This document shows, one piece after another, positions 37,126 through 59,566 of a DNA stretch of 64,000 bases. Under the pieces are notes generated by a model, which did not search any database, was not told the DNA's origin, and was given only the letters and a program-made list of their open reading frames with translations. Positions within the stretch are counted from its first letter, which is position 1. The number at the start of each line of letters is the position of its first letter. The DNA is taken from the NCBI GenBank assembly GCA_000004985.1, contig GG738859.1. One strand, written 5' to 3'. Both the position numbers and the translations under genes were made by a program. Source of the stretch: Naegleria gruberi (lineage: Eukaryota).

Positions 37126-37198
37126 GCCGACATAGCTCAGTTGGGAGAGCGTAAGACTGAAGATCTTAAGGTCCCTGGTTCGATCCCTGGTGTCGGCA
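37126..37198 (+). tRNA. tRNA-Phe (anticodon GAA), 73 nt, no intron
   Basis: GCCGACATAGCTCAGTTGGGAGAGCGTAAGACTGAAGATCTTAAGGTCCCTGGTTCGATCCCTGGTGTCGGCA. It folds as a cloverleaf and is near-identical to metazoan-type tRNA-Phe (recalled from memory). There is one U-U mismatch in the T stem. A TTTT terminator lies 3-6 nt downstream. Confidence 0.9.
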
Positions 37199-48827: not shown

Positions 48828-49268
48828 TTAATGCTTCAAGAAGTGAAGATCAACAGCAGAAGGTAACAATGCCTTCATACTGCTTTCCAAAACTTCATTA
48901 GTTTCCGAATTGACAATTAAAACAGGGAAGTCATTAGTCTTATCATCAACAAATTCTTGGAGAACTTGTCTACAAGCACCACAAGGTGTAACTCCAATGT
49001 TTGTAGAAACAACAATACCCTTGATACAATGACAATTGTTGGAGACCATCTTCATGACAGCACATCTTTCAGCACAGATGGTGAGGCCATAACTTTGGTT
49101 TTCAACATTGCAGCCAGTATAAAGTTGTCCATCGTCTCCTAGAATGCAAGCTCCTACATGAAACTTAGAGTATGGACAATAGGCAATTTTTTGTGTGTCA
49201 ATGCTCTTGCTAATCATGGTTTCCTTGAGAGCTGGATCCTTTTGGAAGATGGATTGTTGTTCTTGCAT
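48828..49268 (-). CDS. cytidine deaminase (homotetrameric CDA type, zinc-binding)
   Basis: ATG 49266-49268; 146 aa. AYCPYSKFHVGACILGDDGQLYTGCNVENQSYGLTICAERCAVMKMVSNN...TPCGACRQVLQEF has the CDA zinc ligands (C/H-AE...PCGxCRQ) and spacing. Confidence 0.85.
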   Translation of the reverse strand: MQEQQSIFQKDPALKETMISKSIDTQKIAYCPYSKFHVGACILGDDGQLYTGCNVENQSYGLTICAERCAVMKMVSNNCHCIKGIVVSTNIGVTPCGACRQVLQEFVDDKTNDFPVLIVNSETNEVLESSMKALLPSAVDLHFLKH

Positions 49269-49597
49269 TTTGTGTATTGATTACAGTAGTACTACTAGTA
49301 AGGATGCTTGTTGTATTTACTTGTTTGGTTCTGAAGTCCAAGGTGAAGAGAGCGAGGCTAATTCAAAATAAAAGGCTTTGCCCGTGTGATCCAGATATTT
49401 TTTTCTAATAAACAACACATTTTTGCAGTATCAAGATATTAATATCGTGGGAGCAGCAAACCAGGGTTTTCTTTCCACTTAAACCCACTTTAAAACAAAT
49501 GCCATAAAGACATCAAGTTAGAGTTAATTTTCATTATCATCTCCAAATTTGGTGGATTGAATGCGAACTTTTGTGAGAATTATACGCTTCGTAAGGA

Positions 49598-49670
49598 TCC
49601 CCCTTAGCTCAGTCGGTAGAGCGTCAGACTGTTAATCTGCAGGTCGGTGGTTCGAGCCCACCAGGGGGAG
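49598..49670 (+). tRNA. tRNA-Asn (anticodon GTT), 73 nt, bacterial/organellar-like sequence type
   Basis: TCCCCCTTAGCTCAGTCGGTAGAGCGTCAGACTGTTAATCTGCAGGTCGGTGGTTCGAGCCCACCAGGGGGAG. Cloverleaf with a 7-bp acceptor stem (U1-A72), D arm GCTCAGTCGGTAGAGC, anticodon loop CUGUUAA, T arm GGTGG/TTCGAGC/CCACC. There is one U-C mismatch at the top of the anticodon stem. TTTT lies 8 nt downstream. Confidence 0.75.
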
Positions 49671-49768
49671 AATATGTTTTATTAATTTGTTGCTTGTGGA
49701 GTTTTGACTACCAACAGGAGTTGAGAATAACCTTCAGCAGTGATCGAAAAAAATCTAAGATTAAAAAA

Positions 49769-51930
49769 ATGAGCGCCAGAAGAGAAGCCGATAGCATCAC
49801 ACTCACACAATTAAAACAATTAGGATGTGAAGTTGAAGAGTCTGTTACTTCTATGGCTGATGTAGATAAATTCTTATTGTATAAAGCTACCGTTATTTGT
49901 CTTAGAGCTATTGCAAGAGGAAATAACAGAGAACCTGATGATTATCCGGAAGACCTTCCTTACGAAATTAGTACTTGTTTTAGAACCTGTACTGCTCTCA
50001 CCCAGTCTATCAAGGTTTGTAGATGACAATTAAAATTATATTGGAAATATTAATTATTTGGAATTAATCGGATCATCAAAATAATTAGGAATACGGATTT
50101 AGAGGAGATATGACTTTTGATCAATTTTTATATCCTAATGAAATGGTTACCCGTCATATTCTTATTTGGTTAGTTGAACAAGCAACATCTTTTATGACTG
50201 ATCAACAAAATAATGAAGGTGCTAACGAAGGAGAAGCAAGTAAGAGACAAACTGTTCAAGCCAGAATGAACTCGGTCCTTTCATTCTTTGTAAATTCTAC
50301 TTGGACTGTGAAAAATCAAAATGGTACCGAAAAAGTGTCAATTGATGTAACCTCTTCAACAAAGAGTTGGGATAATGAAAATATTCGATGGAATAGTTAT
50401 CCTGTGAATTCACAAGCTTCTATGAATGCCTTTTTGTTGGCTGCTTTGAAGAGTGGAGGTTTACCAACTGTTAGTAGAGATTCTGGACTTATGGAAAATT
50501 TAAAGTCAACATTTACTGTTGGAGGAAACGCTAATGATGAATTGTGTGAAAAACATGCCATGTTGTACTATAGAAAGTTTGGACCATACATTTCCGAACA
50601 AATTTTAGCAAAGGATCAAATGGCTTCCACTGTATTTGAAGAAAATGCTCGTGAATTATTATTGGAACAACAACGTGAGGACGAATGGAATGATTTGGGT
50701 ATTGATTCTGGATTAACTCGTGAAGAATACTTTAAACAAAAACAGCAAAAAATCAATACTAAGGTTTCAGATGTTCTTAAGGGAGGAAGTTCTAAATTTG
50801 TTGACAATGATGATTCTGCAAGCTCTGAAGATGGAATGCCATCCCTTTCTGACTTGTTGCAATCATTGAAGAATAATAGAAAGATTGATACATCATCAAC
50901 TTTCTCAAAGAGAAAACTCTTTGAAAATGAAACTGATGATGTGTCTAAAAAATTGCTCACTACCAATCCATTGGCTCCAAAAGAAAAGCAAAATGCAGCC
51001 AATATCGAAGAGGAAAAGAAGAGAAAGGAAGAGGAAAGACAACAAGAATTGGATGAATTACAATCTGTTTTGGATAAAGTTAATGAAAAGATTGATCAAG
51101 CTGAAACAGCTAAGGATACTCTTGTCTCAGAAATGAAAAAACTAGAAGAGGCCATCACAGAGGAAAAACAAAGAAAGAAACAATTGGAAGAGGAGTTTAC
51201 CATCAACAAGACTGCTGCTATTGTTTTGCAAGATAAGGAAAAGAACATTAAGCAATTAGAATCAATGACTGAACAAGCAGAACAACGATTAAAAACTCTG
51301 AAACAGGAATGGGAACAACACAGCACACCTCTGAAAGAAAGAGAAGCCATGTTAAAGGAAAAGATAAAAGATCAAAAGAACGAATACAAGGATTTGGTAA
51401 ATGTTTCAAAGGAACTTCGTGAACAAATGAATGAATTGATTCATACCATTAGATCCAAGGAAGAGTTAATTTCAAAGAAGAAACAAGAATATGAAGAAAT
51501 GCCAAAAGAATCAGATCGTGCCAGTTATGTTACCAGAATTTTGGATGTTGTTAAAAATGTGGAAAAGCAAAACGAAGAAATTAGCAAGGTACTTAAGCAA
51601 AGCAGAGAGTTGAGTGACAACACTAGTGATTTATCAGAAAAGCTCGGTAGAACCTTCCAAGAAAATGAAGAAAATATCTTCAAGGAAGCTCAAAAGGATA
51701 CTGAATACAAGCAACTTTACAAAGATCTCCTTGAAATTAGAAGTCTTTACGAAGCTCTAATTGAACAAGTTCAATTGAACGGCAAGGCTTTGAATACTAT
51801 CAGAGATTTGGACAATCAAATTGATGTCATTTCTGAACGTAATGATACTCTAAATATTGAGAAGATTACAAAGGATTTACAAACAATCCAAGAAGAGAAC
51901 GTAAAATTGCAAAAACAACTCATGAAGTAA
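49769..51930 (+). CDS. CCDC22: CCDC22-like protein (Commander/CCC complex subunit); 2 exons (49769..50014, 50089..51930), 74-nt intron with GTTTGT donor
   Basis: Exon 1 MSARREADSITLTQLKQLGCEVEE...PYEISTCFRTCTALTQSIK; exon 2 EYGFRGDMTFDQFLYPNEMVTRHILIWLVEQA.... The N-terminal FLYP(S/N)E motif region matches. A long coiled coil follows. C-terminal DRASYVTRILDVVKNVEKQNEEISKVLKQSRELSDNTSDLSEKLGRTFQENEENIFKEAQKD...ALIEQVQLNGKALNTIRDLDNQI parallels the CCDC22 C-terminus as recalled from memory. The track ORF 49694 start is TTG. Confidence 0.55.
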
Positions 51931-57242: not shown

Positions 57243-57316
57243 TGCCTCCCTTGGGAATCGAACCCAAGACCTCTGTCTTACTAGGACAGCGCTACTGCCA
57301 ACTGAGCTAGGAAGGC
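57243..57316 (-). tRNA. tRNA-Thr (anticodon AGT), ~73 nt
   Basis: Reverse complement GCCTTCCTAGCTCAGTTGGCAGTAGCGCTGTCCTAGTAAGACAGAGGTCTTGGGTTCGATTCCCAAGGGAGGC. It has a 7-bp acceptor (one G-U), anticodon stem CTGTC/GACAG, loop CTAGTAA and T arm TTGGG/TTCGATT/CCCAA. The D-stem pairing was not resolved. An oligo-T terminator lies downstream on the minus strand. Confidence 0.85.
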
Positions 57317-57424: not shown

Positions 57425-59566
57425 TTATTTTTCTTTTCTCTTGGCCATCTTTCTGTCGAGGGCACCCAAAACTTTCTTTCTCAAACGAATATTCTTTGGT
57501 GTAACTTCAATAAGTTCATCTTGTTGGATATAAGTCAAAACTTCTTCCAATTGGAATACTCGAGGTGGAGATAATCTGATAGTATCTTCCTTACCTGCTG
57601 CTCTCATGTTAGTCAAGTGTTTTTCCTTACAAGGATTAACTTCAATATCATTTTCTCTACTGTGTTCACCAACAATCATACCTTCATAACATTCAGCTGA
57701 TGGATGAATGAAAATATTACCTCTAGCTTCAAGTGGACCTAAAGCATAAGGTGTACCTTTACCACCTTCAAGTGAAACCATGACACCCTTTCTAGTCTTT
57801 TCAATAGGTCCCTTGTATGGTTCATAATCACTGAAAATGTGAGTGAGCATACCTTCACCACGAGTATCAGTTCTGAATTCAGAAGCATAACCAATGAGAC
57901 CACGAGTTGGAACTCTATAAAGTAATTTAGCCTTAATACCATCAACCTTATAATCAATCATTTCACCCTTTCTCTTAGCAAGCTTTTCCATACATTGAGC
58001 AGCCAAACCATTATCAACATCAATTGTAACTTCTTCAATTGGTTCCAAAATATCATCCTTACCACCACCTTCAACATCCTTAAAGATGACTCTTGGAGGA
58101 GAAACTTGGAATTCATAACCTTCTCTTCTCATATTTTCAATAAGTACAGCCAATTGCATTTCACCACGACCCATAATTTCAAAAGCTTCACCCATTGGTT
58201 TAATTGTTAAACTGACGTTCATTTCAGCTTCCTTCAATAAACGAGCACGAAGTTGAGTTGCAGAACATAATTTACCTTCCTTACCAGCCAATGGACTGTC
58301 ATTGACAAGGAACATTACAGACAAAATTGGAGGATCAATTGGTTTAGCTTCAATTGGAGTTGTAACTTGTTTAACATCACAAACTGTATCAGTAACACTG
58401 GCCTTTGAAATACCAGCAATGGATACAATAGAACCAGATAAAGCTCTCTTTACAGGTGTTCTTTGCATACCAATTCTTTGCATGACTTGTAAAACTTTAC
58501 CTTCTTCTAAAACTTCACCAGTTCTACTCATAACTTTAACTCTATCACCTGGTTTAACGGCACCACCATACATTTTACCAGTAACAATTCTACCGAAAAT
58601 TCTATCATAATCAACTGTACTAACAAGCATTTGGAATGGACTTGCAGCAGATGGTCTAACTTTTGGACATGGAATATGTTCCAAAATTGCTTCAAAGATT
58701 GGAGCTGTATTCTTTCTTTCATCCTTTTCAAAATCTTTAACTGCCCAACCACTCTTGGCACTGGCATATAAAATTGGGAAATCCAATTGTTCATCATTAG
58801 CTCCCAAATCAATAAATAAGTCATAAACTTCATTTTCAACTTCACCTCCAATACGAGCAGTTTCACGATCTGATTTGTTGAAAATAACAATTGGTTTCAA
58901 TCCATGTTCTAAGGCCTTTCTCAAAACAAACTTTGTTTGAGCCATAACACCTTCAGTAGCATCAACAAGTAAACAAACACCATCAACCATTGACATGACT
59001 CTTTCCACTTCACCTGAAAAATCAGCATGTCCTGGAGTATCAACAATATTGATAATATATTCACCCTTATATTGAACTGATGTCAATTTAGCCATAATTG
59101 TAATACCTCTTTCCTTTTCCAAGTCCAAACTATCCATTGTACGTTCTTCAGCATCATCTTTAATTGTACCTGTTTGTTTTAATAAACAATCAATCATTGT
59201 TGTTTTACCTGTATCGACGTGAGCAATAATTGCCAAGTTACGAATATTCTTTACTGTGACAAATCCTTCGGAATCAGCTTCAGATTCAACTTGAGGAATA
59301 TCTAAAATATTGATATAATTGGATCCAGATAAATCAACTTTGGAATCATGTTGACGTAAATTTGAGGAGAAGAAACGTTCTTGTTGTTGGGAAAGTAATC
59401 TTTGTAAAAGAGAATGTTTTTGGAGGAGATTAGAGTGCTCAAAGTGGAACCCTTGTGAAAAAACAGATGAGGCAGCCCCGATACAAGGTTTTGACTGTGA
59501 TGATGAAGAAGCAATCTTCCTGACGATACGACTACCACTGGCGACAAGGTTTTTAGAGTTGAGCAT
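57425..59566 (-). CDS. typA: BipA/TypA translational GTPase (bacterial type) with ~110-aa N-terminal organellar targeting-like extension
   Basis: 713 aa, single exon. [29 protein letters not shown]...[83 protein letters not shown]... plus the BipA-specific C-terminal domain (...[42 protein letters not shown]...). The N-terminal [27 protein letters not shown]... is Ser/Arg-rich and presequence-like. Confidence 0.85.

Follow-up and report, generated by a model that had tools for sequence, protein, structure and literature searches.

A nuclear tRNA-Asn(GUU) gene with a U1-A72 first pair in Naegleria gruberi, probably a dispersed copy of the standard cytosolic type

A tRNA-Asn gene among nuclear genes

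The window, by which we mean the whole 64-kb stretch of Naegleria gruberi DNA analysed here, is gene-dense and has a GC content of about 34%. Its proteins are of eukaryotic nuclear kinds: Tsr1, a cyclophilin, a CCDC22-like protein, a Macro protein, SMC, a kinase, Tim17, a fimbrin-like CH protein and a cytidine deaminase. An exact-sequence look-up of six ORF products found four on record, three of which fall into clusters with Naegleria gruberi accessions. Between the divergent cytidine deaminase and CCDC22-like genes, a tRNA-Asn gene sits alone in an intergenic region of about 500 nt (Table 1). The products of the flanking genes match N. gruberi nuclear proteins exactly, EFC46220 and EFC46327 among them, from a 530-kb scaffold, and no organellar or bacterial genes were found next to it among the window neighbours. 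The CCDC22-like gene has one intron (exon 1 ends in ...ATCAAG, followed by gtttgt); automated gene calls on another contig, L001, split this gene into two ORFs. The nuclear context reported in the initial annotation is thus borne out by the identity of the neighbours and by this intron.

Table 1. Coordinates of the tRNA-Asn gene, its elements and other features in the window
Feature	Position	Strand	Remarks
tRNA-Asn(GTT) gene	49598-49670	+	73 nt; ARAGORN and Rfam
Putative internal Pol III A box, TAGCTCAGTCGG	49605-49616	+	tRNA positions 8-19; read from the sequence
U27.C43 mismatch	49625, 49641	+	Top of anticodon stem
Anticodon GTT	49631-49633	+	tRNA positions 34-36; U33 before, A37 after
Putative internal Pol III B box, GGTTCGAGCCC	49649-49659	+	tRNA positions 52-62; read from the sequence
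TTTT run	49677-49680	+	7 nt past G73; probable Pol III terminator
Cytidine deaminase gene	48828-49268	-	Divergent upstream neighbour; ORF; Pfam dCMP_cyt_deam_1 on identical product; N. gruberi annotation
CCDC22-like gene	49769-51930	+	One intron; ATG at 49769, 98 nt downstream of tRNA-Asn
tRNA-Phe(GAA)	37126-37198		Eukaryotic type; ARAGORN, Rfam
tRNA-Thr(AGU)	57243-57316		Eukaryotic type; ARAGORN, Rfam
TypA/BipA-type translational GTPase	57425-59566	-	ORF; domains GTP_EFTU, EFG_C, BipA_C

The tRNA-Asn(GUU) named in the initial annotation is a real gene. ARAGORN and Rfam agree on its exact ends (TCCCCCTTAGCTCAGTCGGTAGAGCGTCAGACTGTTAATCTGCAGGTCGGTGGTTCGAGCCCACCAGGGGGAG), and the Rfam model RF00005 scores 67.9 bits against a gathering threshold of 29 (E=1.2e-12), with model positions 1-71 of 71 covered. 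All seven pairs of the acceptor stem are Watson-Crick in the pairing table, the first of them formed by T1 of the gene with A72 (U1-A72), and the discriminator base is G73. The D arm reads GCTC/AGTCGGTA/GAGC, with a D loop of 8 nt that lacks positions 20a/b; the variable loop has 5 nt (AGGTC) and the T arm reads GGTGG/TTCGAGC/CCACC. The only non-canonical pair in the cloverleaf is U27.C43. Asn identity is defined by the GUU anticodon together with G73 (PMC9976931), and the gene carries both G34-U35-U36 and G73. A reading as a pseudogene or SINE was rejected on account of the perfect cloverleaf, the high score and the absence of repeated flanks from the window. The GC content of the gene is 60%, and that of its non-coding flanks is 35%.

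The putative A box matches the TRGCNNAGTGG type of consensus and the putative B box matches GGTTCGANNCC, a fit to consensus which suggests that both elements are functional. The gene does not encode CCA; its 3' flank is AATATGTTTTATT. The tRNA-Phe and tRNA-Thr genes of the window have an analogous 3' flank (AATTTTAA) and likewise no encoded CCA. Directly 5' of all three genes there is a purine-rich GAA or GGA (...GGA for tRNA-Asn), and on the 3' side all three flanks start with AAT and have TTTT within 3-7 nt. The oligo-T run described earlier is present and follows a gene end without CCA. Taken together, the A box, the B box, the missing CCA and the TTTT run correspond to the layout of a nuclear tRNA gene transcribed by Pol III.

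The three tRNA genes lie inside 20 kb of the window, and its first 37 kb hold none. The ORF for the TypA/BipA-type factor, 109 nt from tRNA-Thr, encodes a protein of bacterial or organelle type that is nucleus-encoded.

Likeness to bacterial, phage and eukaryotic tRNAs

The highest full-length identities came from viral-contig scans, in which two contigs, L153 and L155, carried tRNA-Asn genes identical to the Naegleria gene at 67/73 positions. Their acceptor stems are identical to the Naegleria one, which upholds the earlier statement that T1 pairing with A72 resembles bacterial tRNA-Asn. The first of the two belongs to a tailed phage and carries a terminase and an array of four tRNA genes; in the second, an integrase lies beside the tRNA, as is characteristic of a prophage inserted at a bacterial tRNA-Asn. 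Because of this terminase and this prophage integrase, a giant-virus origin of the closest viral matches was rejected. The tRNA-Asn of Aeromonas caviae, with encoded CCA and within a tRNA operon, matches at 66/73, and Acinetobacter phages reach up to 87.8% identity. In sampled GTDB genomes, a looser pattern retrieved 120 bacterial loci with 65 distinct sequences, among which the best tRNA-Asn matches at 64/73. Of these 65 sequences, 59 begin with T, and CCA, which is common but not universal in bacterial tRNA genes, is encoded in nearly all. The resemblance to proteobacterial-type tRNA-Asn, with bacterial and phage genes at 88-92% identity, is therefore real.

The resemblance extends to details. 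Like the Naegleria gene, the bacterial and phage tRNA-Asn genes (A. caviae, Burkholderiales, L153 and L155) have U1-A72, G73 and TCC...GGA ends, the same D arm with an 8-nt D loop lacking 20a/b, G26, C43 and the AGGTC variable loop. The 27.43 pair is mismatched on both sides of the comparison, U.C in Naegleria and A.C in the closest bacterial and phage sequences, with C43 in common. The differences amount to 6-9 positions, and the pairs 29-41 and 50-64 are changed on both sides and still Watson-Crick. Unlike the Naegleria gene, these genes almost always encode CCA and lie in tRNA operons or arrays or beside prophage integrases; neither an encoded CCA nor an operon, array or other bacterial context was found for the Naegleria tRNA-Asn.

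Exact matches were also sought. The query, a 35-nt core that takes in the Naegleria tRNA-Asn from its D arm to its anticodon stem, had no match in 185,579 bacterial and archaeal species, each represented by one genome. Every prokaryotic or phage sequence found differs from the Naegleria tRNA-Asn at at least six positions. The exact 3' 25-mer of the gene did not occur in 2.9 million viral contigs, in which the 3' 25-mer of the human sequence, used as a control, did not occur either, so that this comparison does not discriminate between the two. Scans of JGI metagenomes and of viral sequences with the 35-nt core retrieved only phage-type tRNA-Asn genes, and these have G1-C72. The genes in question form a freshwater phage family (L122-L135 and L138-L150; JGI metagenome and IMG/VR) that has the exact core and does not encode CCA, and some of its members lie in tRNA arrays. 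The E. coli gene that comes closest to the Naegleria gene codes for tRNA-Ile, with an identity of about 78%, so similarity at such a level crosses isotypes.

On the eukaryotic side, the known cytosolic tRNA-Asn sequences of animals, yeast and plants have G1-C72. The literature was searched for printed eukaryotic tRNA-Asn sequences and yielded human fragments only. Human tRNA-Asn-GTT has the anticodon, G73, the T arm, the A and B boxes, the lack of encoded CCA, the oligo-T run and the dispersed intergenic setting in common with the Naegleria gene, and differs in its D arm, its acceptor stem and the first pair, G1-C72 (C72 as read in PMC11476591). Overall the two are about 71% identical, an approximate figure.

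The T arm (GGTGGTTCGAGCCCACC) is that of human cytosolic tRNA-Asn, as read from a printed 3' fragment (PMC11476591): it is identical at 17/17 positions, against 15/17 for the closest bacterial matches. Likewise, the D arm (TAGCTCAGTCGGTAGAGC) is that of human cytosolic tRNA-Lys-TTT (PMC12217144). Compared with human tRNA-Lys(UUU) (tRNA-Lys-TTT-3-1), the Naegleria tRNA-Asn is identical at 16/16 positions of the D arm and 15/17 of the anticodon arm, where one difference is G34 in Naegleria against U34, and G73 is common to both; the human tRNA differs in its G1-C72 acceptor stem, T arm, anticodon and identity. Since both arms occur unchanged in human cytosolic tRNAs, neither is diagnostic for a bacterial or organellar origin, and their use as bacterial or organellar markers in the initial annotation does not hold. 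The D arm that it had quoted as the eukaryotic norm is presumably the type of human and other animal tRNA-Asn, whereas the host is a heterolobosean amoeba.

A similar picture emerged for the body of the molecule. Over positions 8-48, human tRNA-Lys3 matches the Naegleria gene at 37/41 and the best GTDB bacterial tRNA-Asn (L097) at 38/41. Over positions 8-65, the figure is 46/58 for human tRNA-Lys3 and 43-53/58 for 80 bacterial and phage tRNA-Asn that had been preselected for an identical D arm.

The U1-A72 pair itself has native eukaryotic counterparts, as human cytosolic tRNA-Asp and tRNA-Glu carry it (PMC12217144), which implies that eukaryotic processing and export handle it routinely. Human tRNA-Asp(GUC) also has G73 and TCC...GGAG ends, as in the Naegleria tRNA-Asn; the eukaryotic tRNA-Asp and tRNA-Glu differ from it in their D arm (TAGTATAGTGG type), anticodon and body. 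To judge from these comparisons, what separates bacterial from eukaryotic here is only the acceptor stem, and essentially the 1-72 pair.

The locus in a second isolate and in other heteroloboseans

A second N. gruberi isolate (ENA ERZ929261, run ERR1078381, contig L151) likewise has the tRNA-Asn beside this deaminase gene. Its tRNA agrees with that of the window at every position assembled (72/72), and the 5' flank has SNPs; a tRNA that is invariant in two isolates beside a variable flank fits constraint on the tRNA. The contig (positions 1-72) ends at tRNA position 72, one base before the 3' end of the gene. On contig L001 (1-780), the CCDC22-like gene from about 49766 is joined to an unrelated sequence of about 770 nt, apparently the 3' end of a zinc-finger-like gene. 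Neither contig contains the roughly 95 nt that separate the tRNA-Asn from the CCDC22-like gene (window 49670-49766). This difference 3' of the tRNA-Asn may reflect either a genuine rearrangement or an error of assembly at a repeat.

In N. lovaniensis, another Naegleria species, Willaertia, Acrasis and an environmental relative, the loci around the cytidine deaminase and CCDC22 genes held no tRNA-Asn, and no tRNA gene of any kind occurred in the roughly 115 kb of these heterolobosean loci, metagenome contigs included. Beside the three tRNA genes of the window, this lack fits an unusually large tDNA complement in N. gruberi. Judged by gene order and product sizes, N. lovaniensis, Willaertia and a Naegleria-like metagenome contig keep the deaminase gene next to a downstream 373-aa gene. 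On the other side of the deaminase gene, these loci (L160, L161 and L164) have a Myb-domain or RCC1-like gene where the window has tRNA-Asn and CCDC22. The tRNA-Asn thus lies at a synteny breakpoint (window 48828-49769) found only in the N. gruberi lineage. Its absence from the corresponding loci of relatives means that the copy arrived or survived there only in this lineage. Such a location is expected of one copy in a dispersed multigene family that turns over.

The size of this family can be gauged from the genome as a whole. For N. gruberi, 924 tDNAs have been reported; 883 of them are intact, with 84% as singletons (PMC2888827). With 883 intact tRNA genes, tens of tRNA-Asn copies are to be expected, and the lone tRNA-Asn met in a 64-kb window would then be far likelier to be of the majority type than a rare foreign one. 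The majority-type status that we propose for the gene is based on this copy-number prior. A search of the protein database for spurious ORFs translated across the tRNA, aimed at other Naegleria copies, gave no candidate.

Standing and origin of the gene

We consider it probable that the locus holds a functional nuclear Pol III tRNA-Asn(GUU) gene that is of the lineage's standard cytosolic type and one of its dispersed copies. The gene and its structure, its nuclear context, the lack of CCA, its occurrence in two isolates and its lineage-specific location are observations; from them we infer expression, cytosolic use and membership in the majority family. The internal A and B boxes would direct transcription, with termination at the downstream T run. 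RNase P would then remove the 5' leader, the trailer would be trimmed and CCA would be added post-transcriptionally. Charging by AsnRS would rely on G34-U35-U36 and G73, and the mature tRNA would supply the cytosolic ribosome with a decoder of AAC and AAU codons. The U1-A72 pair would then be a trait of the lineage's tRNA-Asn and not the mark of a foreign copy. Counting against this explanation, the best full-length matches are bacterial and phage sequences at 88-92%, against about 71%, an approximate figure, for human tRNA-Asn. The G1-C72 pair of the known animal, yeast and plant sequences and the U1-A72 pair reconstructed for the bacterial ancestor of tRNA-Asn count against it as well. A lineage-specific cytosolic variant had been listed in the initial annotation as the less interesting alternative; we judge it to be the most probable reading.

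The foremost alternative, which we hold to be unlikely, is that the tRNA-Asn family is of bacterial descent, having either displaced the cytosolic G1-C72 type or been kept, with both GatCAB determinants, for mitochondrial import. In its first form, a shade less likely still, the whole Naegleria cytosolic tRNA-Asn family would descend from a bacterial-type gene that replaced the ancestral eukaryotic G1-C72 type. Either the mitochondrial ancestor or, at a later time, a bacterium or phage would have served as donor, and adaptation to Pol III, loss of CCA and nuclear amplification would have followed. Such a replacement would account for the acceptor stem identical to that of some bacterial and phage tRNA-Asn, for the high overall identity, and for the common details beyond consensus, namely G26, C43 with a non-Watson-Crick 27.43 pair and the AGGTC loop. 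It also agrees with a reconstruction of ancestral tRNA-Asn, in which U1-A72 is inferred for the bacterial ancestor and G1-C72 for the archaeal ancestor and LUCA (PMC13433404). However, two substitutions suffice to turn G1-C72 into U1-A72, and tRNAs occupy a small sequence space, whereas the databases of bacterial and phage sequences are very large. The acceptor stem alone discriminates, the range of the bacterial and phage bodies takes in the human tRNA-Lys3 value, and the T arm is closer to human tRNA-Asn than to the best bacterial matches. In addition, neither the exact 35-nt core in the prokaryotic species nor the exact 3' 25-mer in the viral contigs was found.

It is improbable, to a greater degree, that the gene is a nucleus-encoded tRNA-Asn of bacterial or organelle type that is imported into mitochondria, as a substrate of a bacterial-type GatCAB or of organellar enzymes. 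Mitochondrial GatCAB of eukaryotes serves Gln-tRNAGln and is not known to serve Asn, which speaks against this role. In bacteria, GatCAB amidates Asp-tRNAAsn and recognises it by U1-A72 and a D loop without the extra positions 20a/b (PMC1635274, PMC2811023, PMC13433404); both determinants are present in the Naegleria tRNA-Asn and count in favour of import. Moreover, Naegleria mitochondria must import some tRNAs, given that their DNA has genes for only about 20 and is without at least trnA, trnC and trnG. Nevertheless, the genes reported missing from the mtDNA of the Naegleria clade, compared with deeper heteroloboseans, are trnA, trnC and trnG, not trnN (PMC7900873). Naegleria mtDNA is also 74.7-77.8% AT (about 22-25% GC), a composition so far from the 60% GC of the gene that the latter is not a recent mitochondrial copy, and mitochondrial flanking sequence is absent. 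The copy-number prior further disfavours a rare special-purpose gene as the only tRNA-Asn of the window. A recent NUMT was rejected as well, in view of a composition unlike mtDNA and flanks of nuclear type.

The last alternative, a single copy recently transferred from a bacterium or phage, for example from an amoeba-associated proteobacterium, and possibly non-functional, is very improbable: the identity to proteobacterial and phage tRNA-Asn, the location specific to the N. gruberi lineage and the bacterial-derived genes that the N. gruberi genome paper reportedly describes speak for it, but CCA is not encoded, unlike in nearly all bacterial and phage relatives examined, co-transferred bacterial genes and tRNA-operon neighbours are absent, the 35% GC flanks are Naegleria-like with the leader and trailer style of the neighbouring tRNAs, the closest prokaryotic sequence differs at no fewer than six positions with no exact core match, and the tRNA is identical in two isolates although the flank varies.

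With CCA not encoded, nuclear flanks, 60% GC and no exact core match in the 185,579 prokaryotic species, the organelle-derived, mitochondrial-import and horizontal readings offered in the initial annotation gained no support, and on present evidence the bacterial-origin and mitochondrial-service readings are unsupported. Either would matter more than the reading we prefer. If the family were bacterial in origin, it would add to the rarely documented cases in which a core cytosolic tRNA was replaced by a bacterial-type gene, and a tRNA-Asn that served mitochondrial translation would likewise be of greater consequence.

If the gene is the standard cytosolic tRNA-Asn, as we think probable, the finding is a small comparative footnote. 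The G1-C72 pair known from animal, yeast and plant tRNA-Asn would then not be universal in eukaryotes, and features that look 'bacterial' by a metazoan yardstick could be native in deep-branching protists.
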